The position numbers and the translations under genes are program-made. The notes beneath the pieces were generated by a model. The model saw nothing but the letters and a program-made list of their open reading frames with translations, searched no databases and was not told the origin of the DNA. From assembly GCA_963744095.1 (NCBI GenBank), contig CAVUSH010000003.1, positions 1,162 to 65,161 on the forward strand: a stretch of DNA of 64,000 bases, in the 5' to 3' direction. Origin of the DNA: an uncultured Chloroflexia bacterium (GTDB taxonomy: Bacteria > Chloroflexota > Limnocylindria > Limnocylindrales > CSP1-4). The first letter of the stretch is position 1, and the number at the start of each line of letters is the position of its first letter. Shown here piece by piece: positions 6,424 through 64,000 of the stretch.

Positions 6424-6447
6424 CGCGCGCGCTCTCCGTGGCCTGGC

Positions 6448-9090: not shown

Positions 9091-9222
9091 GGGCGGGTCC
9101 TCCTCGAAGAATGATCGGCACGGAGCCTTGCGTAAGACGGCGATTATAGCACTATCGGGGCCGAAGGGGGACGGAGAATTGATCCCGGTGCCGCGGTCGT
9201 CAGACCGACAAGGACAAACGGA

Positions 9223-9807: not shown

Positions 9808-9817
9808 GGCCTTCCCC

Positions 9818-13190: not shown

Positions 13191-13348
13191 GACACTCTCT
13201 CCTTGGCTGACCCGCGGCTTAGCCCCATGCCCATCGTTCGGCAACGGATGCGAAAGAGGCCGATGATCAACGGCCTGGCAATTAGGAATAATATCACATG
13301 AAGAAGGACATCTGTCAAACCATCCTCCCGCGCCGGTCTCCGGCGGCA

Positions 13349-13789
13349 TCAAAACAGGGCCAGCGAATATTCCCTGAGACGGGCCTGGCGGCGCCGGGCG
13401 TCAGGCATGCGGCCCTCGAGCTCGGCCCAGAAGGCCCGGCCATGGCCCCGAACGCGAGTGTGGACGAGCTCGTGGAGGATGACGTAGTCGGCCAGGTCCG
13501 GCGGCACCACCGCGAGGAACGCGTTGAGCTGGATGCGGCCCGTGCGGGAGGCGCTGCCCCAAAGCGTGCCCTGGCACCGGACGCTCAGGCGCCCGGGACT
13601 GTAGCCGTGCTCGCGGGCCAGAGCGTCCAGGCGCCCGGCGAGGGCGGCCTTGGCGGCCCGCCGGTCCAGCCCCTGGGCCGCGAGAACGGCCTGGCGACAG
13701 CGGCCGCGGGCGCTCTCGAGGCGGGCGAGGGTGCGCCGGATCCAGGCGAGCTTGTCGAGGGCGACGCGCCGGGCCTCGTCGAACGACAC
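13349..13789 (-). CDS. DUF45/YgjP-like (M48-type) zinc metallopeptidase; true 5' end probably further upstream
   Basis: HELVH zinc motif (YVILHELVHT). Family-like sequence (RTYVLDGVGPVLFVKTKRARHISLTARASRGVRVAVPWRVS) continues in frame upstream of GTG 13789 to about 13930. There is no ATG, GTG or TTG in that stretch. Confidence 0.7.
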   Translation of the reverse strand: MSFDEARRVALDKLAWIRRTLARLESARGRCRQAVLAAQGLDRRAAKAALAGRLDALAREHGYSPGRLSVRCQGTLWGSASRTGRIQLNAFLAVVPPDLADYVILHELVHTRVRGHGRAFWAELEGRMPDARRRQARLREYSLALF

Positions 13790-13952
13790 CCGCCAGGGGA
13801 CGGCGACGCGGACGCCGCGGGAGGCCCGCGCGGTCAGGGAGATATGGCGGGCCCGCTTGGTCTTTACGAAAAGGACGGGGCCGACGCCGTCGAGGACGTA
13901 CGTCCGGCACGGCGCCGCGGACTTCGCCGACAGGCCCTGCCTGCCGCCGGTC

Positions 13953-16364
13953 TCAGTCCTCGAAATCGAACCGTCTCCGGGCGAGTTTATTGTTGACGGT
14001 GTTGGCGTCCAGCGCCCACATGCCCCGGCCGTGCGTGGCGATGACGATGATGTTGTCCCGCGGGTGGACGATCAGGTCGTGGACGTAGGCCGTCGGGAGG
14101 TTGCCGCCGAGGACCATCCAAGTCTGGCCGCCGTCGGTCGTGACGTAGACGCCCATATCGGTCCCGACGTAGAGGATGTTCTCTCTGACAGGGTCCTCGC
14201 GGATGACGTTGACCGGCCCGACCGGGATGCCTTTGGCCAGGCTCGTCCAGGTCTTGCCGAAATCGATCGATTTCCAGACGTAGGGCGTGAAGTCGTCGTC
14301 GCGCTTGCCGTTCTGGGTGAGATAGACCGTGCCCATCTTGTGGGCCGAGGCGACGACACGGGACATCCACTTGCCCGGGGCCAGTCCGGCCGTGATCTCC
14401 TGCCAGGCCTTGCCGCCGTCCTCGGTCACCCAAAGGCGGCCGTCGTCCGTGCCGGCATAGATGAGCCCATAGCGGAACGGCGACTCGGAGACGGTGAAGA
14501 GCGTCTGGTAGCGGATGTCGCCTCGCGTCGCCGGGTCGTTGGTCGTCAGGTCAGGGCTGATCCTCTCCCAGGTATCGCCCCGGTCGAGGGACCGGAAGAC
14601 GTACTGCATGCCGTGGTAGACGATGTTCGGGTTGGTCGGCGAGAGGATGAACGGGGCCAGCCACTGGCCGCGGAGAGGCGGCTCGTTCTCGTACGGAGTC
14701 GGGAGCAACGATTTCGTGTAGGGCCAGCCGGGGTACTCCCCGGGCTTGTCGTATTCGCTCCGCATGATCGTGCCGTAGAAGCCGGCCGAGTAGACGATGT
14801 CGGGGTTGGTCGGGTCGACGGCGTGGTTCGAGCCCTCGCCGCCGGGAGCGTTCTCGAATTCCTGGGCCGGGATCTTGTCCCGTCCCTGGCTCAGGTCGAC
14901 CTTGCCGCGGAAGCTGCCGTGGTCCTGCATCGAGCCGTAGACCTTGAACGGCGTGGCCATGTCGTAATTGAGGTTGAAGAACTGGCAGACGTTGATCTCG
15001 TTCTGGAAGTAGCGCCAGCTCTGGCCCTTGTCGTAGGACACGGCCACCCCCTGGTCGAATCCCCTGAGGAGATAGTTGGAATTGGCCGGGTCGATCCACA
15101 GGGCATGGTTGTCGCCGCCCGGGGCGCGGCGGAAGGTCGTATAGGTCTTGCCGCCGTCGGTCGAGACGCTGAAGGGCACGCCCAGGATATAGGATGTGTT
15201 CGGGTCGTTCGGGTCGACGCGGATCTGGCCGAAGACCCAGCCGTAGGTCCCGGAGTGGCGCTCCATGAATCCTTTCTGCTGGGGCGTCAGGCCGCTCGTC
15301 TGGGTCCAGGTGGCCCCGGCGTCGTCGGAGCGATAGACCGTGGCCCCCTTGATGAAACCGGAAGAGGGAACGCCGTAGGAGTCCGTGATCTCCTGGGGCG
15401 TCGGCTCGCGCGAGATCTCATAGTTGTCGACGAGCGCGTAGAGGGTGTCGGGCTTTGTCAGGCAGATGTCGATCCCGATGCGGCCGCGCCAGCGGGCGTC
15501 GGGCAGGCCCTGGTTGACGGGCGTCCAGGTCTTGCCGCCGTCGGTCGTCTTGAAGATGCCGCTTCCGACCGAGGAGGCGTCGTTTCTCGGATCGTTCCAT
15601 TTCTTGCGCGTCCGCTGCCACATCGCGGCGTAGAGGGTGTCGCTCGAGCGCGGGTCCATGACCAGGTCGTAGGCGCCGGTCTCGTCGTTGACGAAGAGGA
15701 CCTTGTCCCAGGTCTTGCCGCCGTCGACGGTCTTGTAGACGCCGCGGTCGGCGTTTTTCGTCCACTCGTGCCCGCCGGCCGCGACGTAGACGATGTCGGG
15801 GTTGGTCGGGTGGACGACGATGCGGGCGATGGTGTTCGTATCGGAGAGGCCCATGTTGGCCCAGCTTTTGCCGCCGTCGGCCGATTTGAAGATGCCGATT
15901 CCCGCCTGGGAGCTGCGGAAGATGTTGTGCTCGCCGGTGCCGACCCAAACGACGTTCTGGTCGGACGGGGCGAGGGCGATGTCGCCGATGGCCGCCGTGA
16001 CCATGTTCTCGAAGATCGGCGTCCAGGTCGTGCCCTCGTTCTCCGTCTTCCAGACGCCGCCCGAGGCCGAGGCGACGTAGACGGTGTAGTTCGTCCCCTT
16101 GGGGGCGACGACGGCGACATCGGTCACCCGGCCGCTGACGTTCGTCGGGCCGAGGAATTGCCATTTGAGGTCCTTGAACTTCGAGGCCGCCTGCATCGCC
16201 TTATACTCCTCGAAGCCCTTGAGCCGGAGCTCAGGGTTGGTCGATTGGAGGACCTTGGGTTTGACCGTCTTGGGTTGGGCGAACGGGAGCGCAGCCAGGA
16301 CGAGGATCGCCGCGGCGACGATCCATAGGGACCTGCGGACGGGGGACCTGCGGAACATGGACAT
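13953..16364 (-). CDS. secreted BNR/Asp-box repeat beta-propeller protein (sortilin/VPS10-like)
   Basis: ORF 13953..16397. ATG 16362-16364 (MSMFRRSPV...) lies 7 nt after GAGGAGG. About 10 Asp-boxes are present (SADGGKSW, TVDGGKTW, TTDGGKTW, STDGGKTY, TEDGGKAW, TTDGGQTW...). Confidence 0.85.
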   Translation of the reverse strand: MSMFRRSPVRRSLWIVAAAILVLAALPFAQPKTVKPKVLQSTNPELRLKGFEEYKAMQAASKFKDLKWQFLGPTNVSGRVTDVAVVAPKGTNYTVYVASASGGVWKTENEGTTWTPIFENMVTAAIGDIALAPSDQNVVWVGTGEHNIFRSSQAGIGIFKSADGGKSWANMGLSDTNTIARIVVHPTNPDIVYVAAGGHEWTKNADRGVYKTVDGGKTWDKVLFVNDETGAYDLVMDPRSSDTLYAAMWQRTRKKWNDPRNDASSVGSGIFKTTDGGKTWTPVNQGLPDARWRGRIGIDICLTKPDTLYALVDNYEISREPTPQEITDSYGVPSSGFIKGATVYRSDDAGATWTQTSGLTPQQKGFMERHSGTYGWVFGQIRVDPNDPNTSYILGVPFSVSTDGGKTYTTFRRAPGGDNHALWIDPANSNYLLRGFDQGVAVSYDKGQSWRYFQNEINVCQFFNLNYDMATPFKVYGSMQDHGSFRGKVDLSQGRDKIPAQEFENAPGGEGSNHAVDPTNPDIVYSAGFYGTIMRSEYDKPGEYPGWPYTKSLLPTPYENEPPLRGQWLAPFILSPTNPNIVYHGMQYVFRSLDRGDTWERISPDLTTNDPATRGDIRYQTLFTVSESPFRYGLIYAGTDDGRLWVTEDGGKAWQEITAGLAPGKWMSRVVASAHKMGTVYLTQNGKRDDDFTPYVWKSIDFGKTWTSLAKGIPVGPVNVIREDPVRENILYVGTDMGVYVTTDGGQTWMVLGGNLPTAYVHDLIVHPRDNIIVIATHGRGMWALDANTVNNKLARRRFDFED

Positions 16365-52742: not shown

Positions 52743-52797
52743 GGAAATCCATCTCTCCGGCCTTGCTCAGGATATCGCCGCCTCGAGATGGATTTCC
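52743..52797. repeat. perfect 13-bp inverted repeat with 29-nt spacer between clpB and the fadL-like gene
   Basis: GGAAATCCATCTC (52743-52755) and GAGATGGATTTCC (52785-52797), followed by A7. A TATAAT box lies at 52812-52817. Confidence 0.7.
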
Positions 52798-52850
52798 AAA
52801 AAAAGGGCGTATATAATGGGTCGCACGTTCAGTCATTGGAGATACGGACG

Positions 52851-54141
52851 ATGACCAAGAAGATCCTTATCGCGGCCACGACCGCATTGTTCCTGCTGCC
52901 TTCTTTCGCGTCGGCCAACGGGCTCAACCTGAACGGACTTGGGACGCGGGCCCAAGGCATGGGCGGGGCTTTTGTCGAGCATCGCCGACGATTTCAGCGC
53001 CGTTTTCTGGAACCCGGCCGGTGCGGCCGGCTTCAGCAAGGAGATGTTCGGCTTTTACGCGACCGACCTGATTCCGAGGGCGACCTACCGCCGGGACTTC
53101 GCCTTTCCCGAGGACCCCAAAGTCGATGCCAGGACCAAGGATTCGCACTACCTGGGTTTCCTGGCCGGCTACTACAGGCCGGTCAGCTCCAAGATCGTCA
53201 TCGGCCTGGGCATCGGTACGCCCTCTGAGCAGGGGACCCTGTGGAACGGCGCGGATTTCGCCGGCCTCTCGGCCGGGACGGCCTACGATTGGTCGAGCCG
53301 ATTGATCGTTTTCTCCTTTTCGCCGCTCGTCGCGGTCAAGCTCAGCGAGGCGATATCCGTAGGGGTGACGCTGAACGTCAACCTGGGGACGTCCAGCCTC
53401 AAGATGCCGGCCGGGTTTTCGAGCTTGCCGGAAATCGGAGTCTTCGATCCCGTCGACCTCGGACAATACGAAGAGAACATGACCGGCTGGGGGCTGGGGG
53501 CGACTATCGGTGTCCTGGTCAAACCTATCGACAAGCTCAGCATCGGCCTGACCGTGCGGACGCCGTCGGCGATCGCTTTCGACGGCTCGGCCAGAATGTC
53601 CAACCTTTCGCTCTATGATCTTCCGGGGAGCTCGGACCTCGAGCGGAAGATCACTTGGCCGCTGTGGGTCGCGGGCGGCGTGGCGTTCCGGCCTGTCCCG
53701 CTCCTTCTCCTGAGCGCTGACGTTCACTGGACCCAGTGGTCCAAGCGCGACCAGATCAGGACCACGTTCCTTGATCCCGACTGGGTGCCACTGGCTACAG
53801 CCGTCGGCAAGGATGTCCGGGTCCTTGACTGGAAGGACACGACGCAGATCCGGTTCGGCGCGGAGTACATGCTGAACGGGACGACGGCGCTTCGGGCCGG
53901 CTATTACAGCGACCCGGCTCCGGGGCCGGAATCGACGCTCACGGCTCTTCTGCCGACTCACACCTTCAATGCCTTTTCGGTCGGCGCCGGCAAGGCGGTC
54001 GGAGACCTCCAGCTGGATTTCGGCCTGGCCTACCTCAAGGGCAACACGCGTACGGCCGGGCTCGGGCTGCCCAATGCCATGCCCGGGACTCACAGGCTGA
54101 ACATCTTCGTCCCGACCGCTTCGGCCAGCTATAAGTTCTAG
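52851..54141 (+). pseudogene. FadL/OMPP1/TodX-family outer-membrane transporter, one frameshift near codon 42
   Basis: ATG 52851 (MTKKILIAATTALFLLPSFASANGLNLNGLGTRAQGMGGAFV) in ORF 52788..53228. The protein continues as SIADDFSAVFWNPAG... in ORF 52939..54141, which is the +1 frame. The switch falls around 52970-52980, next to a T4 run. Ends ...ASYKF. Confidence 0.75.
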
Positions 54142-54229
54142 CCGTCCGTCCGAACGCAGAGACGCCTCGTCATCCGTAAGGGGGGCGGCTGTCTATTTCG
54201 GAGTGTCGGGCCTGAGGCAAAAGAAAGAA

Positions 54230-54302
54230 TGGCTAGGGACGGAATTGAACCGCCGACGCAAGGATTTTCAGTCCTTCGCTCTACCAACTGAGCTACCTAG
54301 CC
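54230..54302 (-). tRNA. tRNA-Phe (anticodon GAA), copy 1
   Basis: Minus strand GGCTAGGTAGCTCAGTTGGTAGAGCGAAGGACTGAAAATCCTTGCGTCGGCGGTTCAATTCCGTCCCTAGCCA. It folds as a 7/4/5/5 cloverleaf with a CTGAAAA anticodon loop. No encoded CCA. Confidence 0.93.
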
Positions 54303-54415
54303 ATCAGGTCTCCGGCTACCGCCGGAAAGCGCGTTCAGTCTAGCCATTTGGAGCAAAGTCAACGGCCTGAGGCCGATAACCGACCTTTGGTTCAATTGAG
54401 GACGCCGCGGCTTCT

Positions 54416-54443
54416 TTGCTTCTGGGCTTTAGAATGATACAAT
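54416..54443 (+). promoter_or_regulatory. promoter candidate for hicBA copy 1
   Basis: TTGCTT (54416-54421), 16 nt, TACAAT (54438-54443). AAGGAGGG RBS before GTG 54465. Confidence 0.5.
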
Positions 54444-54464
54444 GAACGCAAGGAGGGACGGAAC

Positions 54465-54680
54465 GTGAAATTCAATGTAATCCTGACTCCCGCGGAAGAG
54501 GGCGGGTTCATAGTGACGGTTCCGGCCCTCGACGGTTGTTTTACGGAAGGCGAAACGGAAAAGCAAGCCCTCAAGAACGCCAAGGAAGCCATTGTCTGCT
54601 ATCTCGAAGGCCTCGAGAAGGTCAATCAGATCAGGCTTAAACCCAAGACCGTCATCAAGGAAATCGAGGTCCACGTTTGA
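54465..54680 (+). CDS. hicB: HicB-family antitoxin (short form, no obvious DNA-binding tail)
   Basis: ORF 54465..54680. [43 protein letters not shown] is a typical HicB/UPF0150 N-domain. Confidence 0.85.
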
Positions 54681-54892
54681 GCCGAACGTTTTCCGGGAAA
54701 GAGGTCGTCAAGGCCCTTCGCCGGAGTGGCTATGTCGTCGATCATCAGCGCGGCAGCCACATCTTCTTGCACAACCTGGAAAGGAACGTCTCATTGGTGA
54801 TACCGCTCCATAAAGAGCTCAAGAAGGGAACTCTTCACGCCATCTTGAAAAAAGCCGGCCTGTCCTTGGGGGATCTCAAGGAACTCGTCTAG
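54677..54892 (+). CDS. hicA: HicA-family mRNA interferase toxin
   Basis: ORF 54677..54892. TTG start overlaps the hicB TGA (TTGA). [26 protein letters not shown]...[12 protein letters not shown] is the HicA/YcfA signature. Confidence 0.85.
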
Positions 54893-55008
54893 CCCGGGCG
54901 TCTTCTCTCTCGGCCGGAACCTGGCCCGGCATGGCTTGAATGCGCGGACCCTTTTCGATCTTTTCCTCGAGCTCCGCGAGATCCTGAAGGCGATACGCGA
55001 GCGGCTCG

Positions 55009-56115
55009 CTACTTGACCTTCCAGGTCATGGAATAGCGCTTGACGTACTGGATCCCCTCATCGTCCTGAATGATCGCATAGAGCTTGCCGTCCTTGAAGA
55101 CCAGAGGCTCGCCCGGAATAGGATAATCGCAGAGGTAGCGCCCCTCCGGATCGAAGATGTTGAAAACGTCGACCCCCGCTCCAGGATCTCTCTGCCAGGT
55201 GGAAACGTAGAAGCGGCCGTCCTCGTCGGCATAGACCCACGAGAGGGGCGGCAAGTGCCTAGGGACGGTGATCTCATCCCGGGATTGGATCCCGATCCGC
55301 TTCATCTGGCGGTCGACATCCTGATCGGAAACCGGAACGGGATCGTAAGCCTTGATGATGGTCCGAACTAGGCGGCCCCCGGCGTCAAAAACGCTAAGGC
55401 GGTAATCCCTCTCCCCCGAGGCACATACGATCTCGCGTCCGCGAGAGATATCCCAACGGACGACGCTCGCAAACAACTGGAACTTCGCGGACGGGTCCGG
55501 CATCGGGGAAAAGGCCAGGACCTTCTTCTGCTTGAGACCGGGGCCGCAGAGAACGACTTCATAGCGGGGCTTCTCCTCTTCCATGACCATCCTTGTGCCC
55601 ACGGCATCTCCGCTCTCAAGGTATTTGATAAAAGCCCGCGGCCCGACCGAGTTATCTTGGCTGCGCAGGAAGAGTCCTGCCCGATCGAAAAAGGACAGCC
55701 TACCCATTTCCCCCACAAGGATCTCTCCGGCGGGGGCGAGAGCGACGAAGAACGGGCCCTGGAACTCCCCCGGCCCCTGACCGCGTCTTCCGATCGAACG
55801 AACATGCCGGCCGTCGTTCCCGAAGACATCGACTCGGGGCTTCCGTTGATCGAGCGTGATGATCGATCCTTTATCATCGACCGCGAGACCCCGCAAACTT
55901 ATGAACATGTATTCCTCGGCGCCCGCGGCCGTCCCGATCGTCAGATCCTCCTTGAGTTCCAAAGCCCCTTGCGGATACATGGGAGTTGATGGATTTCGAA
56001 CGACCTCGACGCCGTTCGCGGTCTCGATCGATCCCTTCCAAGCGGACTCTCCCTTACAGCCCCAAACGACGGCTAAGAGCGGCAAAAAGGCTAGAAATAT
56101 CCCTGCTTTTCGCAT
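55009..56115 (-). CDS. 6-bladed beta-propeller (NHL-like) protein, probable lipoprotein
   Basis: ORF 55009..56169. ATG 56113-56115 (MRKAGIFLAFLPLLAVVWGC) after GAGGAGG. GRRGQGPGEF motif. Paralog of 61897..63081. Confidence 0.75.
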   Translation of the reverse strand: MRKAGIFLAFLPLLAVVWGCKGESAWKGSIETANGVEVVRNPSTPMYPQGALELKEDLTIGTAAGAEEYMFISLRGLAVDDKGSIITLDQRKPRVDVFGNDGRHVRSIGRRGQGPGEFQGPFFVALAPAGEILVGEMGRLSFFDRAGLFLRSQDNSVGPRAFIKYLESGDAVGTRMVMEEEKPRYEVVLCGPGLKQKKVLAFSPMPDPSAKFQLFASVVRWDISRGREIVCASGERDYRLSVFDAGGRLVRTIIKAYDPVPVSDQDVDRQMKRIGIQSRDEITVPRHLPPLSWVYADEDGRFYVSTWQRDPGAGVDVFNIFDPEGRYLCDYPIPGEPLVFKDGKLYAIIQDDEGIQYVKRYSMTWKVK

Positions 56116-56256
56116 TTTGCCTCCTCGCTGTATATCCCCTCCCCAAAGAGATATCCCTCGCAACGACAATAGTCAAGGTTCTCAAATCACAAGGGCAGGC
56201 GTGGAAATCCCCTAAGCGATCTTGGCCTTCTTGAGGGAAAACGACAGCTCTCCTAT

Positions 56257-56448
56257 CTTGACCAAATCTTGACCAAACCGACGGAAAAACAGAGACGACC
56301 CGGGACTGGCAGGGACGCGCAGGGAAGCGGATTTGCCCTGTTGGAGCACGTTTATCAGGGATTTCTCGGGGAAGCCGGAAAAGGCGCTTACTGAGTTAAT
56401 CGCCCCAGGGTCAATATTTTACTGATTTAAAAGGGGTTGTCAATCTGA
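56257..56448 (+). repeat. R element, copy a
   Basis: CTTGACCAAATCTTGACCAAACC followed by a conserved non-coding stretch of about 130 nt (...GTTTATCAGGGATTTCTCGGGGA...CTGAGTTAATCGCCC) and a weaker extension to TTGTCAATCTGA. Confidence 0.8.
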
Positions 56449-56624
56449 AGTCGGGTAGTTTGAGGCCTAATATTCTGCCGCTGGGAAAAACACTCTGTTG
56501 GAGACCTTCCTCGAGCTGCGCAAAATCCTGAAGGCAATCCAGAAAGGCTCGGTCTACGAAGACGATAAGGGGTTGCACATTCCGACTTTCGTCGTTATAT
56601 TAATATAAAGAAAGGGACTGCCGG

Positions 56625-57857
56625 ATGAACCGCAGGAGATGGGGGATTCAAATATCTTTGATTTTTATCATGATCTTCCTAATTTTCGCATGCTTACCGA
56701 GACTGAAAAAGATGGGCTCGGCAGCCATTTCGTCCGACGGCGAGGGAGAGCCAGGTCCGGTAAATAGATCCGAATGGTCCTGGTTTGATGGCCAGGGAAG
56801 AACCCGCTCATATGAGCAGACGTTTGATAGAATCCGCGAGATTGTGAGCAGAAATGGTATCCGGGGGCTTTCCCTTGTTCTGAAACAGGCAAAACTCTGG
56901 ACGGATAATCCTGACGTGTTTCATCTTAACCTGGGTTTTGAGTCTTCCCAATCTACGAAGTCGATCGACGCAAAGACCATTTTTCGCGCCGATAGACTTG
57001 GGCAGACAGTTGTTGCCTATCTGGTTCTAAGGCTCGCTAGCGACGGACAATTCGATCTCGACCGATCGTTATCAAGATACGTCGCGAAATCCGCGATGGA
57101 AGGTTCCTTTTATAAAGATATCGCAAACGACCGTCGATGTGCGCAACTGACAGCGAGGCGGATCCTTAGCCACCAAAGCGGGCTGGTCAACTCGCGGTTG
57201 AATCATCCCGATAAGAAATTAACGTTTATCACTTCGCCAGGGAAAGGTTATGCCTATTCCGACGAGGGATTCGGATATCTCCAGTTTATTCTGGAACAGA
57301 CGCTTGGCAGAGGCTTGGATGAGCTCGCTAACGCCTATGTTTTCGGTCCCTTTGCTATGACACAATCCAAGTTCTCCTGCGAGATCCATGCTCCCGCGGA
57401 CTCGGCCTTTCATCCTGGCGATTCGAAATCGGGCCAGCCCTGTGCTTTCTTTACGACCTCCTCGGATTTTACGAATTTCATGTGGCAGATCAGGATGGTG
57501 ATAGGCGAGCTGCCTTATGAAGCCTGGGCTTCATATCTCATCGACCCGACTGTTTCCGTCCGCTCTCCCTCAATACTGACGGAAGGGCCGTACGAGGGCA
57601 AACTGAGCCTGCCCTCAAAGCTGGCTTGGTGTCTGGGGTGGGGTATTTACCGAATTCCCAGGGTCGAAGCTGGGGCCTGCACTTTTATTGGAGAGAAGAA
57701 TCAAGAGATGGAATCTTACGCCACCGTTTTTTATTCTAACCATTCAACGGCAGTGACGATCTTTGCAGTCCCGTCATCCTCAGATTCGGCAATTCCTTTG
57801 ATCTTTAGGGAACTTCTCGGTGATATGGAGAATCCGTTCTCCTGGCTTGGGTTTTAA
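56625..57857 (+). CDS. beta-lactamase/transpeptidase-fold (class C / esterase VIII-like) protein lacking the SxxK motif, membrane-anchored
   Basis: ORF 56625..57857 with visibly lower GC. N-terminal TM IQISLIFIMIFLIFA. The family segment reads FRADRLGQTVVAYLVLRLASDGQFDLD where FRxxSxxKT... is expected. YSD replaces YxN. Confidence 0.65.
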   Translation: MNRRRWGIQISLIFIMIFLIFACLPRLKKMGSAAISSDGEGEPGPVNRSEWSWFDGQGRTRSYEQTFDRIREIVSRNGIRGLSLVLKQAKLWTDNPDVFHLNLGFESSQSTKSIDAKTIFRADRLGQTVVAYLVLRLASDGQFDLDRSLSRYVAKSAMEGSFYKDIANDRRCAQLTARRILSHQSGLVNSRLNHPDKKLTFITSPGKGYAYSDEGFGYLQFILEQTLGRGLDELANAYVFGPFAMTQSKFSCEIHAPADSAFHPGDSKSGQPCAFFTTSSDFTNFMWQIRMVIGELPYEAWASYLIDPTVSVRSPSILTEGPYEGKLSLPSKLAWCLGWGIYRIPRVEAGACTFIGEKNQEMESYATVFYSNHSTAVTIFAVPSSSDSAIPLIFRELLGDMENPFSWLGF

Positions 57858-57875
57858 AGGAAGGCCAGAGATATC

Positions 57876-58024
57876 CTTGACCAAATCTTGACCAAACCAC
57901 GGAAAAACCGAAACGAACAGGGACGGATAGGGACGCTCCAGGAAGCGGTTTTCCCCTGTTGTAGCACGTTTATCAGGGATTTCTCGGGGAGGGCTCAAAA
58001 AGGGCTTACTGAGTGAATCGCCCA
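57876..58024 (+). repeat. R element, copy b
   Basis: Same opening CTTGACCAAATCTTGACCAAACC and conserved body. It has a 1-nt deletion relative to copies a and d. Confidence 0.8.
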
Positions 58025-58093
58025 GTCGGCTTCGGGTTAATTAAGGCGGAACCGCCCTTGTTGAATGGCGGAACTTCTGGCATGAGTTCCGGG

Positions 58094-58315
58094 CCAAAAA
58101 TGTGTGTCCATAAATGTGTCCTAAGTACTTTCTTGATCCGAAGAATTTCTTCGCCAAATTGCGGATTTGCAGCCGTGTCCCGCTCAGGATCTACCCATAT
58201 TTCGACTAAGGCAGAGAACGTGGACACACTTTGGACACACTTTGCCCTCTCCGCGTTCCTGGCTTTTCTCGGTTTTTCCAGGTTTTACGCGGGATTTCTG
58301 GCGAGGGATTATTGA
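58094..58315 (+). repeat. Q element, copy b
   Basis: AAATGTGTGTCC and AAATGTGTCC (58098-58121), a 100-bp core with palindrome CGAAGAATTTCTTCG (58139-58153), then GGACACACTTT twice (58222-58243). Near-identical to 60901-61108. Confidence 0.8.
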
Positions 58316-58325
58316 AGTTCACCCC

Positions 58326-58352
58326 ATATAGAAAAGGAGTTTCTGGAACTCC
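58326..58352 (-). terminator. hairpin plus T-tract downstream of tRNA-Phe copy 2
   Basis: Minus strand GGAGTT-ccaga-AACTCC (58352-58336), then TTTTC. About 20 nt after the tRNA 3' end. Confidence 0.45.
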
Positions 58353-58371
58353 TATGGGAGAAAAAGAAGAA

Positions 58372-58444
58372 TGGCTAGGGACGGAATTGAACCGCCGACG
58401 CAAGGATTTTCAGTCCTTCGCTCTACCAACTGAGCTACCTAGCC
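58372..58444 (-). tRNA. tRNA-Phe (GAA), copy 2, identical to copy 1
   Basis: Same 73-nt sequence as 54230-54302. Confidence 0.93.
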
Positions 58445-60344
58445 ATTGACCGCCCGGCGACCGCCGGAAAGCGCGTTCAGTCTAGCCATTTGGAGCAAAG
58501 TCAACGGCCTGAGGCCGATAACCAACCTTTGGTTCAATTGAGGACGCCGCGGCCTCTTTGCTCCTGGGCTTAGGATGGATACAATGAACGGTCGGAGGGA
58601 CGGAACGTGAAATTCAATGTAATCCCGACTCCCGCGGAAGAGGGCGGGTTCATTGGTTCCACGGTTTGAGCCGGAAAGGGGTGCTGACCTTGCTTTTATC
58701 GCCGCCCAACTCAAGATACTTCTTAAATATTCCCCGGCTTTGTTAGGTTCGTTCCGTCCATTATAAATCCTCCCTAGCTCGAGGTACGGGACGAGCGCGT
58801 TCGGATTGTAAGCGATCGCCTTCTCGAAGTAATCGATCGCCTGTCCGGTCTTTCCTTGCCCGGCATAGAGGAGCCCCAGGTATTGGCAGGACGGGGCTGA
58901 CACCGGTTCGACTTTGACCGTGAGGGAATGCTCCAGGATGGCGGCATCGGCCTGAAGCGGCGCACCAGCCGCGGCGTTCTCCTGGCGAATAGCCTCCAGC
59001 CAGTTCTTCTCGGCCCTCAGATCGTCCCCAAGCTCATGGTAAGCGCATGCCAGGTTGTAGAAGCTCAGTGGATCCCGCGTATTCAGCCCGAGGGCCTTTT
59101 CATACGAGCGTGCGGCATTCTCGTAATCCCCGATCTTAAAGTAGACATTCCCCATTAGGTCGCGCGCTTCCGCGCTATTGTTCTTTAGCGCGATGGTCCT
59201 TGCGCCGCAGGCGAGAGCTTCCGCGAAACGGCCCAGCGTATTGCTGAGCTGGCCGAGATTGTAGTAAATCGTCGGCGAATCGGCATAGATTTCGGTGAAC
59301 TCACGCAGCTGATTGGCGGCGTCGACGAGGAGGCCTAACTGGATGTACTGAAGGGCATATCGGTTAGCCACTGCGGCGACGTCGTTTGGCCGGCCCTCCA
59401 GGACGTAGAGAAACCGCGGCCCTCTGGCCTTCATGAACTCCCGAGAAAATATCGACGCAGACGAACCATCGACGATGCGCCTGCCCGCCCGAGCCTGTTC
59501 CAATAGGAACCGGGCCTGGAAATCCAGCGGGCTCAACTTCACAACCCTCGTCAGCACCTGGGCAGCTTTTTGGAAATCGGACCGTCGCATATCGTCAATG
59601 GCCACATTCTTGAGTGGTTCCGGCCGGAAAGGTTCGGCGGCAACGGCCTCCTCAAGAGAAACCCGGCTTTCTTCCTGCCGGCCGAGTTGCGCCAAGATGA
59701 TAGCCTTGAGCATGAACACATCGGAGGGAATATCCGTGACGATGATCTTGTTCTTTGGTGGCGCACGCCGTCTTTCCCGTTACGGCGGAAATCCCCCCGA
59801 TCTCCCCTTCGGCCGACGAAATATCGCCCTTCGTGCCGCAAAGCCTCAGGGCCTCCGGCCAATGCCCCGCTTCCATTTCCGCGTAGATTGACTGAAGCCA
59901 GCAATCTGTGGCGTCGTAGCTCAGGTCCTGGGCACGAAGAAACCAGGATCTCGCGGCCTGGGAATCTTGCTTTTTAATCGCCTCCAAACCAAGGAGGTAG
60001 GCGGGAAGGCCGGCATTGGGAAATAGGCCCCTTAGGTTGGCGTTGAGCTTCTTGACGTTGGACGAATTCACGATCTTATCCAGCTTTGCTTGGATTGTCC
60101 GAGCGGTCATGAGGGCATCATCGGGCTTCCCTGAGGCATGCTGAATGAAGCTGAGAAGGATCAGCGGATTGAGATCATCGGGAAATAATTCACGCTCCCG
60201 ATTGAGAACGCCCACGGCTTCCTTGTATTTGTTCAACCGGAAGTACGCGAAGGCCTGTTTGACCCGCAGTCCGCGCTCCATCGGGTGCGCCTGAAGGGCT
60301 AGCTCGAATTGCGAAATCGCTTCGTCATACAGCATAGAATCCAT
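58439..60344 (-). pseudogene. TPR-repeat protein, frameshifted and 3'-truncated/fused into repeat DNA
   Basis: ORFs 59652..60344 and 58439..59719 are TPR-like throughout (e.g. YYNLGQL, YFKIGDYENAARSYEKAL, YNLACAYHELGD). The frame switches near 59745-59760. After about 58654 the ORF reads antisense through the hicB stub and spacer and stops inside tRNA copy 2. A signal-peptide-like 45-codon ORF from TTG 60462 lies in another frame. Confidence 0.65.
58606..58653 (+). pseudogene. hicB remnant (first 16 codons only)
   Basis: GTGAAATTCAATGTAATCCCGACTCCCGCGGAAGAGGGCGGGTTCAT matches the hicB 5' end together with the spacer and promoter upstream. Similarity stops at 58653. Confidence 0.8.
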
Positions 60345-60669
60345 GCAGAACTAGAGCTCGTGCGATTCGCGGGTCTTCGCCCCCTAATGGCGGAGGCGCC
60401 ATGAACGCAGGGAGGATAGCCGCGGACAGCAGCAAGAATCGGAGACGAGCGGAAGTGATCAAAGATATCTGCCTTCTGACGCCGGGTTACCGTCGAGATC
60501 TGCGACGAAAACCTGGATGAGCTTTAGGATCACGGTGACTTCGTATTGGAGAGGCTTTATAGCCTGCTCGCTGCGCGGCTGACCTTTGCCCGCCTTGCTG
60601 AGCTCACACCAATAAAGTAGCGCGATTCTGGTGAGATTTCAATACAACAGACTGCTGCCGTCCTTTAAC

Positions 60670-60735
60670 CTTGACCAACTATTGACCAACCAACGGAAGA
60701 ACCGAGACGACCCGGGACGGCCGGGCACGCTCCGG
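60670..60735 (+). repeat. R element, copy c (partial, diverged)
   Basis: CTTGACCAACTATTGACCAACCAACGGAAGAACCGAGACGACCCGGGACGG... keeps the 11-bp phased direct repeat, then loses similarity. Confidence 0.65.
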
Positions 60736-60900
60736 TAAGCTGATTTCGTCTGTAGAATGGGCATTTCCGGGGTTTTTATGGAGAGGGCGAGAGAGTCGCC
60801 AACCGAGCTACAGCTCCGGTCGCTTCGAAAAGCGAGAGTGGGCGGTCGCTATCGAATAGCAGACCACGGACCAAGGGAAACTGGGGGCGAATTAGCGGGT

Positions 60901-61108
60901 CCAAAAATGTGTCCTAAGTACTTTCTTGATCCGAAGAATTTCTTCGCCAAATTGCGGATTTGCAGCCCTGTCCCGCTCAGGATCTACCCATATTTCGACT
61001 AAGGTAGAGAAAGTGGACACACTTTGGACACACTTTGCCCGCTTCGCATTCCTGGATTTTCCCGGTTTTTCCAGATTTTACGCGGTGTTTCGGGCGGGGG
61101 ATTATTGA
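60901..61108 (+). repeat. Q element, copy c
   Basis: One left-arm AAATGTGTCC (60905-60914), the same core, then GGACACACTTT twice (61014-61035). Confidence 0.8.
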
Positions 61109-61163
61109 CACTTTCCCCATACGGAAGAGGGCGGATCAGAGCTCATCTGGGGGAAAAAAAGAA

Positions 61164-61236
61164 TGGCTAGGGACGGAATTGAACCGTCGACGCAAGGATT
61201 TTCAGTCCTTCGCTCTACCTACTGAGCTACCTAGCC
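61164..61236 (-). tRNA. tRNA-Phe (GAA), copy 3, two substitutions
   Basis: Differs from copies 1 and 2 at U17->A (D-loop) and G50->A, which turns a G-U pair with U64 into A-U. Confidence 0.9.
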
Positions 61237-61351
61237 ATTGACCGCCCGGCGACCGCCGGAAAGCGCGTTCAGTTATGGTCATTCGGGGGGTAAAGTCAAC
61301 GGCCTGAGGCCGATAACCGACCTTTGGTTCAATTAGGTCGCCGCGGCTTCT

Positions 61352-61379
61352 TTGCTCCTGGGATTTAGAATGATACAAT
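61352..61379 (+). promoter_or_regulatory. promoter candidate for hicBA copy 2
   Basis: TTGCTC (61352-61357), 16 nt, TACAAT (61374-61379). Confidence 0.5.
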
Positions 61380-61400
61380 AAACGCTAGGAGGGACGGAAC

Positions 61401-61616
61401 GTGAAATTCAATGTAATCCTGACTCCCGCGGAAGAGGGCGGGTTCATAGTGACGGTTCCGGCCCTCGACGGTTGTTTTACGGAAGGCGAAACGGAAAAGC
61501 AAGCCCTCAAGAACGCCAAGGAAGCCATTGTCTGCTATCTCGAAGGCCTCGAGAAGATCAACCAGATCAAGTCCAGACCCAAGGCCGTCATCAAGGAAAT
61601 CGAGGTCCACGTTTGA
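61401..61616 (+). CDS. hicB: HicB-family antitoxin, copy 2
   Basis: ORF 61401..61616. Differs from copy 1 only near the C-terminus ([16 protein letters not shown] versus [16 protein letters not shown]). Confidence 0.85.
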
Positions 61617-61828
61617 GCCGAACGTTTTCCGGGAAAGAGGTCGTCAAGGCCCTTCGCCGGAGTGGCTATGTCGTCGATCATCAGCGCGGCAGCCACATCT
61701 TCTTGCACAACCTGGAAAAGAACATCTCATTGGTGATGCCGCTCCATAAAGAGCTCAAGAAGGGAACTCTTCACGCCATCTTGAAAAAGGCCGGCCTGTC
61801 CTTGGGGGATCTCAAGGAACTCGTCTAG
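61613..61828 (+). CDS. hicA: HicA-family toxin, copy 2
   Basis: TTG 61613 overlaps the hicB TGA. It lies inside ORF track entry 61472..61828. [10 protein letters not shown] versus [10 protein letters not shown] in copy 1. Confidence 0.85.
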
Positions 61829-61896
61829 CCCGGGCGTCTTCTCTCTCGGCCGGAACCTGGCCTGCCTGGAAATCAATAGGTCGAGTTATTCCGTTC

Positions 61897-63081
61897 CTAC
61901 TTTTCGACGATCTTGTACTCGTAGAAGCAGACGCCGCGGTAGCTGTCGAGCAGGAACAGCCGATCCTGGTGGACCCAGATCTTGTCGACGAAGTGGGTCA
62001 GGGGGATCTCGCCAAGAAGTATGCCGTCCGATCTGAAAATCTCCAGTTTGTACATGTCCGTCTTCCTAAGATCAGTGTGCCCGACGAGTTTTCGGGTCTC
62101 CGCCCCACCGACCTGGCCGCTATACATGACGATGACCTCCTCGTCCTTCCTAATCTGCCGGTCGCAGGTCACCACCCAGATCCGGCCAGAGCCGTCGGCA
62201 TCGAGGCTTCTCGCCACGGAATTGAATTTGGGATAGAAGGTCCGAGCCCCCTCACGCCGTCCCTTCTCCACCATTTTAGCCGGATAATTCAGTTCACGGT
62301 CGGCTCTCCACAACAACTGTCCGTCCGGCGAAAATTTCTCGATGCGATTCTGAAGGAGAAAGCAGAGGTAAATGTTGTCTTCACGGTCAACTGTGAAATC
62401 CCAAGAGTTACCCACGCTGTTCGCGAGCTCGTCTCCAAAGTCGAAGGGGTCCCCGAATTCTTGCTGCGGTGCGAGATCCGGCCCCAGTATTTTGACCAGC
62501 TTAGGCCCACGCCTATTGCCCTCGACGGCCATCTTCCCGGAACGCAAGAGCCGCATCTGGTAAATATCCAGGTTTATGACCGGGATGGTCTTAAGGACCT
62601 CGCCTTTTGATGCGAACACCTGGATCCGCCGCTGCCGGTTATCCAGGACGTGGAAGCGGCCTTCGCCGTCGAAGTCGATCGAGCGCGTGGACATGAACTC
62701 CCCGGGCCCCTGCCCTTTTCGGCCGACGGTCCTGAGGTAGCGGCCTTCCGGATCGAACACCTGGATGCGCTGATTCTGGCTGTCGGCGATGTAGATATTC
62801 CCGGCGGTGTCCACGGCCAAGTCTGCGGGTGAGTTGAAGGCCAGGTTCTCATCATCCGAATCCACGTCGCCGATTGTCCTCACCAGCTCGATAGAGACCT
62901 TCGGGGCCGTCCCCCAGACCCCACCCTTAGCGTTGTGAACGATCCGGACGCCGTTCTCGGCTACGATTGTCTGAGCAGAGATGCCCCGGGAAAGCAAGGG
63001 CCCAACGATAAGCGAAACTAATAGGAGGAGGAACGAGATTAATGGGAGTGCTGCAAGGTGGTTCTTTGTCCATACCGTCAT
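61897..63081 (-). CDS. 6-bladed beta-propeller (NHL-like) protein, signal-anchored
   Basis: ORF 61897..63081 with GGGAGGG RBS. GRKGQGPGEF, NIYIADSQNQRIQVF and RRIQVF blade motifs. Confidence 0.8.
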   Translation of the reverse strand: MTVWTKNHLAALPLISFLLLLVSLIVGPLLSRGISAQTIVAENGVRIVHNAKGGVWGTAPKVSIELVRTIGDVDSDDENLAFNSPADLAVDTAGNIYIADSQNQRIQVFDPEGRYLRTVGRKGQGPGEFMSTRSIDFDGEGRFHVLDNRQRRIQVFASKGEVLKTIPVINLDIYQMRLLRSGKMAVEGNRRGPKLVKILGPDLAPQQEFGDPFDFGDELANSVGNSWDFTVDREDNIYLCFLLQNRIEKFSPDGQLLWRADRELNYPAKMVEKGRREGARTFYPKFNSVARSLDADGSGRIWVVTCDRQIRKDEEVIVMYSGQVGGAETRKLVGHTDLRKTDMYKLEIFRSDGILLGEIPLTHFVDKIWVHQDRLFLLDSYRGVCFYEYKIVEK

Positions 63082-63153
63082 GGATATGTCCCTCCCTTTC
63101 GAACAGCACTCAACGTTGCCCTTATAGTGAAGGCTTGCTTTTTTATGCGCCCA

Positions 63154-63182
63154 TTATTAGGGCGGGACCGTCGAGGCGTCAA
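63154..63182 (-). promoter_or_regulatory. promoter candidate for the second beta-propeller gene
   Basis: Minus strand TTGACG (63177-63182), 17 nt, TAATAA (63154-63159). Confidence 0.45.
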
Positions 63183-63207
63183 GCGGTCGGTTTTGGGTCC
63201 CAAAGAC

Positions 63208-63399
63208 CTTGACCAAATCTTGACCAAACCAACGGAAAAACGGAGACGGTCCGGGACGGCCCAGGACGCTCCGGGAGGCGGTTTTGCCCTGTTGGATCAC
63301 GTTTATCAGGGATTTCTCGGGGAAGCCGAAAAAGGCGCTTGCTGAGTTAATCGCCCGTCAGTCAGTATTTTACAGATTCGAAAAGGATTGTCGATCTGA
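63208..63399 (+). repeat. R element, copy d
   Basis: Closest to copy a, including the extension GTCAGTATTTTACAGATT..TTGTCGATCTGA. Confidence 0.8.
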
Positions 63400-63454
63400 T
63401 CTCAGGGGCGGATTGACGGCCCTCGACTCCTGTGCGAATATAGGCCCAGTACCC

Positions 63455-63670
63455 ATGCGGACCGATACTCTGGACCCGGAGATCGTCGACGACGAGATGG
63501 CGGCCGTTCTCCGGGGCAAGACGCCCGTCGAGCGGCTTCGCGTCGCCTTCGGACTGTGGACTTCCACCAAGAATATGCTCGAAAGGCTCCTCAGGTCCCA
63601 GCATCCCGATTGGGATGACCGTGCCATCAAGGCGGAGGCCGCAAGAAGGATGTCTCATGGAACAGGATGA
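63455..63670 (+). CDS. small helical hypothetical protein (candidate antitoxin/partner of the downstream nucleotidyltransferase)
   Basis: ATG 63455 inside ORF 63284..63670 (MRTDTLDPEIVDDEMAAVLRGKTPVERLRVAFGLW...). The upstream part of the ORF is R-element DNA that carries stops in copies a and b. TTGACG-17-GAATAT at 63413-63441. No clear SD. Confidence 0.5.
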   Translation: MRTDTLDPEIVDDEMAAVLRGKTPVERLRVAFGLWTSTKNMLERLLRSQHPDWDDRAIKAEAARRMSHGTG

Positions 63671-64000
63671 GCTGCTGAGACACGCCGCACGATGCTTTGA
63701 CGAGAGCGGCGTCCGCTATTTCGTGACGGGCGCCGTCGCGGCTATCGCCTATGGCGAGCCGAGGCTGACGAACGATATCGATATCGTGGCCGATCTCGAG
63801 GAAGACAAAATTCCCCGGCTCAAGAGCTGTTATCCGGCAGATGAGTTCTATTTCGACGAGGAGTCCGCCAGGCGGGCTGTCCGGGCCAGGTCCCAATTCA
63901 ACATCATCCATCCCGGCTCCGGTCTGAAGATCGATATCATGATCTCCCAAGGCAACGAGTTCGATCAGAGCCGTTTCCGGCGGGCCCGGCGGCTCAAGCC
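63657..64000 (+). CDS. Pol-beta-superfamily nucleotidyltransferase-fold protein (AbiEii/MNT/DUF6036-like), 5' part, runs off window
   Basis: Not in the ORF track because it is open-ended. ATG 63657 overlaps the upstream ORF by 14 nt. MEQDELLRHAARCFDESGVRYFVTGAVAAIAYGEPRLTNDIDIVADL contains a G[AS]x9-12 DxD NTase motif. Confidence 0.65.
   Translation, partial: MEQDELLRHAARCFDESGVRYFVTGAVAAIAYGEPRLTNDIDIVADLEEDKIPRLKSCYPADEFYFDEESARRAVRARSQFNIIHPGSGLKIDIMISQGNEFDQSRFRRARRLK

Follow-up and report, generated by a model that had tools for sequence, protein, structure and literature searches.

The window analysed here is a 64-kb stretch of contig CAVUSH010000003.1, and the region studied within it (54.1–64.0 kb) is an array of three tRNA-Phe genes interspersed with toxin–antitoxin (TA) modules, cargo genes and two repeated boundary modules, Q and R. 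We favour, with moderate confidence, the reading that this array is the fadL-proximal part of a composite tRNA-Phe island, built by the serial accretion of integrase-less elements. In relatives, the tRNA-Phe locus lies between clpB-fadL and an asd-like gene with yicC.

ARAGORN detects three tRNA genes in the whole window, each a tRNA-Phe(GAA) on the minus strand, as a first-pass annotation made from the letters of the sequence had claimed. Rfam scores the three copies at 71.6–73.6 bits (gathering score 29), and one of the two changes in copy 3 converts a G-U to an A-U, improving a T-stem pair. The intact target tRNA that marks one end of an island is therefore represented by three intact tRNA-Phe genes; partial tRNA-Phe fragments are found neither in the window nor in the genome relatives.

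Read from left to right, the array starts with the core fadL-like gene, the ancestral gap, tRNA copy 1, a spacer, hicBA, a beta-propeller gene (propeller 1) and R1, abutting a tRNA-Val 5′ fragment and promoter. The next parts are a gene for a beta-lactamase-fold protein, R2 with a Val-like fragment, a segment called mid-a, Q2, tRNA copy 2, a spacer, a hicB stub and a tetratricopeptide repeat (TPR) gene. The last are R3 (type b), mid-b, Q3, tRNA copy 3, a spacer, hicBA, propeller 2, R4 with a tRNA-Val 5′ fragment and promoter, and an Rv0078B-like/AbiEii TA module. The earlier note had this order of parts right, and self-BLAST reproduces the repeats: 54212-54926 matches 61147-61862 (718 nt, 94.4%; tRNA, spacer and hicBA), 54219-54511 matches 58362-58653 (93%; tRNA, spacer and a 47-nt hicB stub), 58106-58653 matches 60899-61447 (89.7%; Q, tRNA and spacer), and the R copies (56257-56448, 57875-58023, a partial one at 60668-60746, and 63206-63399) are 82–86% identical. 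The flank copies had been called near-identical; their measured identity is 91–97%. The drop in GC content past the fadL-like gene is real, from 0.60–0.71 before 54000 to 0.48–0.61 after it. The parts at the tRNA genes are as follows.

54142-54228, no strand assigned: ancestral chromosomal 3′ flank ('gap') of tRNA-Phe, with 76% identity to the stretch between fadL and the tRNA in the island-free relative L006
54229-54303, minus strand: tRNA-Phe(GAA) copy 1, intact (ARAGORN; Rfam 71.6 bits)
54304-54464, no strand assigned: spacer 1 (160 nt), whose tRNA-proximal ~65 nt are an ancestral-type tRNA-Phe promoter
58371-58445, minus strand: tRNA-Phe(GAA) copy 2, intact, same sequence as copy 1 (ARAGORN, Rfam)
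58446-58653, no strand assigned: spacer 2 and the 47-nt hicB stub; homology stops at 58653, a deletion scar
61163-61237, minus strand: tRNA-Phe(GAA) copy 3, intact, with 2 nt changed relative to the other copies (ARAGORN, Rfam)
61238-61828, plus strand: spacer 3 with hicB and hicA, copy 3 (open reading frame (ORF) list, self-BLAST)

The promoter block (TTGACTT...TAnACT, ~65 nt upstream of each tRNA-Phe copy) is kept in the window and in all relatives. At its hicB-proximal end, spacer 1 holds the -10 box and ribosome-binding site of hicBA, and homology of hicBA to other loci begins ~30 nt upstream of hicB.

Relatives and the origin of the units

A search with the fadL-like protein returned nine syntenic loci (62–91% identity), eight of them labelled Candidatus Aminicenantes, Aminicenantia or Aminicenantales and one Acidobacteria bacterium. 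In all nine, clpB-fadL is followed by a minus-strand tRNA-Phe, with one tRNA-Phe each; the tRNA comes directly after fadL in L003, L004, L006, L007 and L008 (related loci are given L numbers). A single tRNA-Phe in nine of nine relatives means that the array is an insertion polymorphism and not conserved synteny. The comparison of relatives at this site, which the first-pass annotation had proposed as a check, has thus come out in favour of an acquired composite at a locus that is polymorphic in content. The 88-nt gap between fadL and tRNA copy 1 of the window is the one homologous to the L006 gap. To the right of the tRNA, relatives carry the asd-like dehydrogenase gene and yicC; both are absent from the window, so the island continues past 64000. 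Where related loci end, an intact tRNA-Phe is connected to the native promoter and to the flank with the asd-like gene.

Occupancy and content of the locus vary among relatives, and the composition of the inserted DNA is atypical. DUF5128 propellers flank the tRNA on both sides in L009, and DUF6807/ThuA genes lie at the locus in L006 and L008. Some related loci represent stages of decay. In L014, the fadL-proximal tRNA and its promoter are gone, and what remains of the distal part is the spacer, hicBA, a homologue of propeller 1 (70% aa) and R, followed by more cargo, R-Q and a single tRNA. L036 and L037 carry fadL, tRNA-Phe, spacer, hicBA and other cargo. Two further rearrangements were seen beside this hotspot. 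The closest full-length relative, L002, has an IS21-family element (IstB, E=6e-83) between fadL and tRNA-Phe (11537-14429), and in L008 a second copy of the clpB 3′ end and of the fadL 5′ part lies ~3 kb from the first (6072-7292 and 9118-11212), which indicates a local duplication.

An adaptive amplification of tRNA-Phe dosage, with the neighbouring genes as passengers, would fit three copies that look functional and have kept their promoter. We give it very little credence, as relatives have one copy at the locus, related arrays decay internal copies to 48 or 20 nt or lose them (L015, L014), and the units differ in cargo and origin.

The origin of the units can be read from their divergence. 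The three spacer copies are about 91% identical pairwise and 90–93% identical to L014, whose clpB and fadL share 90% and 74% with the window. Q2 and Q3 share 86% with one another, and either shares 83–87% with other genomes. The mid+R segment of unit 2 is 58% identical to that of unit 3 (different subtypes) and 83–84% identical to L011/L015, and that of unit 3 is 77% identical to L014. Repeat copies within the window differ by 3–14% and are no closer to one another than to copies in other species. Because the flanks are as diverged mutually as from other species and the cargo is unrelated, the window units were acquired separately, or are old alleles brought together, rather than copied in place. 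The same two observations favour serial acquisition of related TA-carrying units, as first proposed, over local duplication.

In-situ duplication would require that an ancestral unit (tRNA-Phe, hicBA, propeller, R, Q) was repeated in tandem and then diverged, its flanks staying alike through gene conversion. Two of the cargo genes are indeed paralogous DUF5128 propellers, and hicBA copy 1 is 97.4% identical to copy 3 (92% to L014). However, the propellers share 33% aa identity over 130 aa, the remaining cargo is unrelated, neither spacers, Q nor mid+R are closer mutually than to other species, and units 2 and 3 differ in R subtype, making this scenario highly improbable.

We also considered that one tRNA-Phe region was mis-assembled as three, since the window shows indel-type defects (fadL and the TPR gene are split over frames) and short-read contigs break at repeats. 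An independent contig from another ENA assembly, L001, matches the hicB stub, TPR gene, R3, Q3, tRNA copy 3, hicBA, propeller 2 and R4 at 99.5–100%, spanning tRNA copy 3 and reaching into spacer 2. With these same junctions in L001, 3–14% divergence between copies that each have distinct unique flanks, and arrays of the same design in other metagenomes, such an artefact, which had been named as a possible refutation, is extremely improbable. L001 adds 1.3 kb past the window. The next gene there is 77% identical to a 359-aa gene in the second unit of L033, and a degenerate R start follows it at about 65.2 kb.

Boundary modules and tRNA-gene scars

Q and R had been placed on the 3′ side of tRNA copies 2 and 3 only. 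This holds, but the two are not separate parts: aligned, R and Q form a single contiguous block of ~510 nt with a sharp end at GGTTTGGTCAAGATTTGGTCAAGG, beyond which the sequences are unrelated. The copies in the window are these.

56257-56448, no strand assigned: R1, with tail 56257-56390, tRNA-Val 5′ fragment 56391-56405 and an orphan tRNA-Val promoter at 56416-56443 (minus strand)
57875-58105, no strand assigned: R2 with type-a 'mid', tRNA-Val-like 5′ fragment 58009-58023 with one mismatch
58106-58361, no strand assigned: Q2, adjoining the tRNA-Phe 3′ side, core ~58104-58246
60668-60898, no strand assigned: R3 with type-b 'mid', tandem 11-mers, diverged tail and a different tRNA-like 5′ fragment
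60899-61147, no strand assigned: Q3, core ~60897-61039
63206-63399, no strand assigned: R4, with tail 63206-63340, tRNA-Val 5′ fragment 63341-63356 and an orphan tRNA-Val promoter at 63367-63394 (minus strand)

R had been taken for a plain flank repeat. Instead, it is a truncated tRNA-Val gene (promoter plus the 5′ 15–16 nt) fused to an element tail. Its right part consists of TTGACA, 16–17 nt, TAAAAT, 10 nt and then GGGCGATTAACTCAG, matching the promoter and first 15–16 nt of tRNA-Val(CAC) in related contigs. This tRNA-Val piece breaks off after the D-loop (...CTCAG), where it joins a 135-nt tail with two TTGACCAAA 11-mers; in R1, the tail begins with the tandem 11-mers TTGACCAAATC/TTGACCAAACC. 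The orphan promoters of R1 and R4 are directed at propeller 1 and propeller 2, respectively. R is thus the scar of a second, 5′-type integration mode and not a mere flank repeat. R1, R2 and R4 all have junctions of this 5′-fragment type, yet they are of tRNA-Val type within a tRNA-Phe array. The type-a subtype of R2/mid is common to L011, L013 and L015. R3 is a separate subtype, its similarity to the other R copies being confined to the first ~80 nt; together with mid-b, it is 77–81% identical to L014 6904-7133. In type-b R copies (window 60700-60800; L014 ~6960-7010), the tRNA-like 5′ fragment reads GGAGCTGTAGCTC(A/G)G..., unlike Val, Phe or Ala, which points to a fourth tRNA among the targets of these cassettes.

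The Q core (143 nt) is ~98% identical between the two window copies and contains two direct and two inverted GTGTCC hexamers. Scanning metagenomes for its architecture yielded four real loci (L011, L013, L014 and L015), in each of which the Q core lies ~130 nt downstream of tRNA-Phe and is followed by R. The tandem 11-mer GTGYCCAAANTGTGYCC is limited to Q and to the arm next to tRNA-Val 3′ fragments (two found in the window versus 0.05 expected), and TTGACCAAM tandems are limited to R tails. In tandem form, both motifs are missing from the 54-kb core; island-free relatives lack them altogether, single copies included. The island arms beside the tRNA fragments of L022 and L026 are conserved despite differing cargo and carry GTGCCCAAATTGTGCCCAAAAT, a near-twin of the GTGTCCAAAGTGTGTCC of Q. 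These 11-nt-spaced repeats are putative protein-binding sites, most likely for an accessory factor or for the arm-binding domain of a recombinase, and GTGTCCAAAGT and TTGACCAAATC are the candidate tandem 11-mers that a recombinase would bind.

Other functions of Q and R have less to offer. R was rejected as an RNA, its fold z-scores being near zero on both strands, and Rfam matches neither Q nor R, returning only tRNA (window region at E<=1; five related loci at the gathering score). The consensus fold of the Q core reaches -48 kcal/mol on the tRNA-sense strand versus -34 on the other; G-U pairs keep one-sided changes, compensatory changes are absent across six copies, and the shuffle control was uninformative. 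A small Q transcript downstream of tRNA-Phe is possible. As coding sequence, Q offers short ORFs on both strands with few, uninformative substitutions (1 synonymous, 3 non-synonymous). Viral contigs matched neither the Q-core nor the R-start pattern, and hence offer no phage link. Two look-alikes were set aside: the 3′ flank of L009 is weakly similar to Q over its first ~100 nt and lacks the Q core, and single-copy R-like motifs (in the spacer and upstream of the L016 tRNA-Ala) have inconsistent orientations and were treated as chance.

Site-specific recombination at tRNA genes has left its marks elsewhere in this lineage. The far boundary in the window is a full tRNA copy, whereas fragments of the same tRNA occur in related loci (L015, L022, L026, L032). 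Beside fadL, L015 carries a 48-nt tRNA-Phe 3′ fragment that reaches back from the 3′ end precisely as far as the foot of the anticodon stem. The tRNA-Val 3′ fragments measure 43 nt in L022, 41 in L026, 29 in L032 and 30 in L030, and lie in direct orientation 1.9–6.6 kb from the intact gene (6.6 kb in L022, 3.4 kb in L026). The displaced 3′ fragments of 41–48 nt from the anticodon stem-loop (L015, L022, L026) bear out the recombination at tRNA genes that the earlier note had presupposed.

L022: tRNA-Val 3′ fragment 2942-2984, intact gene 9557-9631
L026: tRNA-Val 3′ fragment 6146-6186, intact gene 9622-9696
L032: tRNA-Val 3′ fragment 5885-5913
L030: tRNA-Val 3′ fragment 214-243

Between such repeats of 29–43 nt lies integrase-less cargo: GH95/fucosidase, two M24 peptidases, and GGT with AraC. 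In L022 and L026, only metabolic genes are present between the repeats, every gene having a non-recombinase Pfam assignment; the arms of these two islands also share tandem GTGCCCAAA 11-mers. L026 and L031 share 99.9% identity on the side of hicBA; past the 3′ end of tRNA-Val, the two are unrelated.

The second kind of scar was found in loci reached through close relatives of the HicA of the window (L032, L033/L035 and L016). L032 contains an intact tRNA-Val, its promoter, hicBA, two small genes, an R tail abutting the 5′ 15 nt of tRNA-Val with promoter, and adh_short. L033/L035 carry two stacked units, each closing in R and the Val 5′ 15 nt: the first holds hicBA and a 671-aa gene, the second hicA/UPF0150, the 359-aa gene and a TolB-like propeller. 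In L016, an intact tRNA-Ala is followed by a hicA/helix-turn-helix pair, a DUF5128 propeller, an R tail abutting the 5′ 14 nt of tRNA-Ala with promoter, and hicBA. This 2.2-kb cassette in tRNA-Ala (7384-10216) has the same layout in L017-L021, and its protein is listed on 47 contigs. In L015, the fragment next to an R tail consists of the 5′ 20 nt of tRNA-Phe. The junction fragment matches the nearby intact tRNA in L015, L016, L032 and L033/L035, and displaced 5′ fragments of the island-restored gene are thus present at tRNA-Ala (L016) and at tRNA-Val (L032, and L033/L035 with two stacked units). Such junctions are the signature of cassettes that insert in the 5′ part of a tRNA (the D-loop) and restore the gene with their own promoter and 5′ segment. 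The related loci show a family of modular, recombinase-less TA cassettes with conserved ends, two kinds of tRNA scar, stacking, and polymorphism at the exact tRNA boundary.

Cargo, TA modules and the search for a recombinase

The gene calls of the first reading agree with Pfam. The last core gene, the TA modules and the cargo of the array are listed below.

52788-54141, plus strand: fadL-like outer-membrane transporter, last core gene (Pfam Toluene_X, E=7.5e-32)
54465-54892, plus strand: hicB (54465-54680) and hicA (54677-54892), type II TA pair, copy 1 (Pfam PF15919, PF07927)
55009-56169, minus strand: cargo, DUF5128 six-bladed beta-propeller 1 (Pfam PF17170; L014 homologue 70% aa)
56625-57857, plus strand: cargo, beta-lactamase-fold (serine hydrolase) protein with lipobox-like leader (Pfam PF00144)
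58654-60344, minus strand: cargo, TPR protein, frameshifted in the window (Pfam TPR families)
61401-61616 and 61613-61828, plus strand: hicB and hicA, copy 3 (ORF list, self-BLAST)
61897-63081, minus strand: cargo, DUF5128/NHL beta-propeller 2 with N-terminal membrane or signal segment (Pfam; identical protein on L001)
63284-63670 and from 63657 past the window end, plus strand: Rv0078B-like antitoxin ORF and N-terminal part of an AbiEii-like toxin (PF18993)

The hicBA genes have the features of a HicAB system (PF07927 E=1.6e-17, PF15919 E=2.5e-10, 4-nt gene overlap), with a short HicB of 71 aa that covers profile positions 2-61 of 123 and has no evident DNA-binding domain. Paralogues of hicBA at 80–85% identity adjoin three different tRNAs. 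The Rv0078B-like/AbiEii-like nucleotidyltransferase TA module (63284-64000+; L001 1088-2036) lies directly after the orphan tRNA-Val promoter of R4, and L001 holds the full-length AbiEii-like gene (PF08843); in other units of the cassette family, hicBA fills this position. A ~40-nt motif, CTTCCTCGAGCTCCGCGAGATCCTGAAGGCGATCC, follows closely on the TA module of many units (window ~54960-55000; L014 just after hicA; L015 8638-8673 and 11583-11624; L033 10231-10268 and 13295-13334; L011 7458-7486) and may be a further conserved backbone or boundary element.

Two of the listed genes are broken over frames. The fadL-like gene occupies two (52788-53228, N-terminal with signal peptide, and 52939-54141), owing to a frameshift or a long-read indel error. 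The TPR ORF (window 58439-60344, two ORFs) is a single 590-aa ORF in L001 (4975-6747). It runs through the hicB stub in both, and its native 3′ end was probably removed by the deletion that made the stub. Propeller 1 has a hydrophobic, lipoprotein-like N-terminal leader, judged by eye. Exact-protein look-ups of propeller 1 and the Rv0078B-like ORF gave no match, and that of the beta-lactamase-fold protein returned short contigs only, short-read contigs breaking at repeats.

Neither the island, where Pfam assigns all ORFs to other families, nor the 1.3 kb beyond it yielded an integrase, excisionase or transposase. Ten ambiguous window ORFs that lack an obvious core assignment gave no recombinase with Pfam, the other window ORFs being judged by eye only. 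Pfam likewise reveals no recombinase in the islands of L014, L015 (where two ORFs have no Pfam match), L022, L026, L032 and L033. The island ORFs of L005, L006, L008 and L009 are also negative, and L002 has only the IS21 IstB. The absence of a recombinase that had been noted for the window therefore extends to the 1.3 kb beyond it and to every related locus examined (about 15). Extending the contig rightwards in search of one, as the note had advised, succeeded for these 1.3 kb through L001, and no recombinase lies there. The units, bounded by tRNA, R or Q, keep their boundary sites and have neither recombination nor transfer genes, the hallmark of cis-mobilizable elements (CIMEs).

Mode of assembly and known systems

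Under serial accretion, small circular integrase-less elements with a shared modular backbone would have inserted one after another in Campbell fashion. The backbone would comprise a tRNA segment with a tRNA-type promoter, an adjoining TA module (hicBA, or Rv0078B/AbiEii in the next unit), variable cargo, mostly for envelope or secreted proteins (DUF5128 propellers, beta-lactamase fold, TPR), and the 135-nt R tail. Incoming units would carry a complete promoter-bearing tRNA-Phe flanked by Q and, at its opposite end, by spacer-hicBA, so that the whole tRNA is doubled at each insertion, and the recombinase would act in trans, from further along the array or from elsewhere in the genome. The insertion of whole-tRNA circles predicts the native 3′ flank at copy 1 and Q at the other copies; copy 1 has the ancestral 3′ flank and all copies have an ancestral-type promoter, as expected from circle insertion through the tRNA. 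Once in place, hicBA may stabilise units against loss through recombination between the repeated tRNA backbones, and the displaced tRNA promoter in R (R1, R4) may transcribe through the R tail into sense cargo, such as the two propeller genes. The hicB stub, the solo R copies and the truncation of the TPR gene at its 3′ end would stem from later decay. The block formed by R, the Val 5′ fragment, mid, Q and tRNA-Phe could be host flank picked up by aberrant excision of a Val-type cassette.

Several observations weigh against this reading. The complete internal tRNA-Phe copies are predicted by neither attachment (att) class in relatives, and circles with a complete tRNA-Phe are hypothetical. R junctions in the tRNA-Phe array carry tRNA-Val-type or other fragments, never tRNA-Phe. 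A sense-oriented gene follows only 7 of 12 R tails; by the gene lists, these include all propeller cargos but one. Lastly, with no recombinase in the island, the 1.3 kb beyond, the ten ambiguous ORFs or the related loci, we infer the catalyst entirely. Of the serial integration of related elements first proposed, separate acquisition and recombination at tRNA sites in the lineage stand; the premise that each element brings a whole tRNA-Phe/attP is required by the model but hypothetical, as neither att class in relatives leaves complete internal copies.

Homologous exchange must have contributed to the array and in principle could explain all of it. In its pure form, a hypervariable hotspot would have grown by RecA-dependent unequal crossing-over and by integration of circles or transformed DNA via the 0.7–1.3 kb backbone (R, Q, tRNA, spacer, hicBA), without any action of a site-specific recombinase on the tRNA-Phe copies in this genome. 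The duplicated tRNA, 160-nt spacer and hicBA far exceed what an att core needs, a recombinase is found nowhere, and the hicBA paralogues beside three tRNAs could mediate ectopic exchange. The tRNA-Val-type R in a tRNA-Phe array implies segment shuffling, and at least part of the mosaic must stem from other exchanges, for example homologous recombination via hicBA, R or the tRNA backbone. However, no more than about 140 nt of homology was available to the first insertion beside the native tRNA-Phe (the tRNA and its promoter, the latter only partly conserved), the precise tRNA-fragment scars in the anticodon stem-loop and D-loop of related loci are not predicted, and tandem 11-mers, as is typical of sites bound by proteins, are conserved in the boundary modules. 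We regard homologous recombination as the sole agent as unlikely, though a serious contender.

A doubtful but wider-reaching proposal is that Aminicenantes possess a tRNA-gene capture system with a trans-acting recombinase. Integrase-less cassettes of one design (tRNA 5′ segment and promoter, TA module, cargo, R tail with tandem 11-mers) would enter the D-loop of tRNA-Val, -Ala, -Phe and others, the tRNA would be rebuilt from the cassette's segment, the displaced strong promoter would be aimed through the R tail at the cargo, and integron-like arrays would result in which tRNA genes supply attachment site and promoter alike. The variant in the window, with whole tRNA-Phe and Q, would then be a derivative that captured host flank DNA, and an unrecognised or distantly encoded recombinase would bind the GTGYCCAAA and TTGACCAAA 11-mers.

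Integrons are defined by an intI integrase, an adjacent attI site and the Pc promoter. The analogy with their arrays is functional only: small units, mostly of one or two genes and without a recombinase, gather at one site, and a resident promoter (here the tRNA promoter of R) faces new cargo. Unlike in integrons, there is no intI or attI here, the units carry TA modules and tRNA segments, and only 7 of 12 R tails face a sense gene. No integrase of any kind was found in the window or the related loci; attC-type sites were not searched for.

An attP that spans a whole tRNA is known, for example, from Streptomyces SLP1 at tRNA-Tyr. Phages with tRNA-dependent lysogeny carry a complete tRNA of the targeted isotype (PMC10865867). 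In both, as proposed for the array, the incoming element brings a functional copy of the targeted tRNA. These elements are, however, autonomous with their own integrase, and tRNA-dependent lysogeny destroys the host copy, whereas all copies are intact here.

Closer parallels are found among stacked islands. Accretion and integrase-less CIMEs have been described for ICESt1/ICESt3-related elements and reviewed (PMC5704250). There, too, related elements lie head to tail at one attachment gene, internal units keep boundary sites without integration or transfer genes and decay, and TA modules are tied to island maintenance. The array differs in that its boundary is a complete promoter-bearing tRNA plus ~0.6–1.2 kb of backbone instead of a short att repeat, in having no integrase-bearing partner at any locus, in the interleaved second junction type (R, 5′ tRNA fragments), and in its host lineage, uncultured Aminicenantes as the syntenic relatives are labelled. 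Among the ssrA-specific islands of Dehalococcoides, fifteen lack an integration module and were read as CIMEs (PMC3146451). Like the array, these are tandem islands downstream of one small-RNA gene, bounded by its repeats and variable in content between strains; unlike there, the repeats here are whole tRNAs or 5′/3′ tRNA fragments, and no unit has a recombinase.

In the Islander collection, the displaced-5′-fragment class accounts for 159 of 3919 islands and anticodon-centred attP for 2083, tandems of three or more number only 4, and filtering tests each candidate island for an integrase gene (PMC4383910). L015, L022 and L026, with an intact gene and a displaced 3′ fragment from the anticodon stem-loop, resemble such islands, as do L016, L032 and L033, where an intact tRNA is accompanied by a displaced 5′ fragment and the island restores the gene. 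The integrase criterion fails here, and the 'fragment' in the window is a full-length tRNA.

Tandem islands at tRNA genes and decayed, integrase-less members are thus already known, and the array is an unusual variant of island stacking, not a new principle. What goes beyond the known cases is that about a dozen units at no fewer than three different tRNA genes and in many metagenomes have conserved boundaries and TA modules and none carries a recombinase, a consistency that suggests mobilisation in trans rather than simple decay. The complete promoter-bearing tRNA duplicated at unit boundaries and the orphan tRNA promoters facing cargo are likewise beyond them. If mobilisation in trans holds, these units would form a cassette-capture platform in a widespread uncultured sediment phylum and would explain how envelope and secreted proteins diversify in these bacteria. 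For annotation, island finders that need an integrase and a tRNA fragment will miss arrays of this kind.

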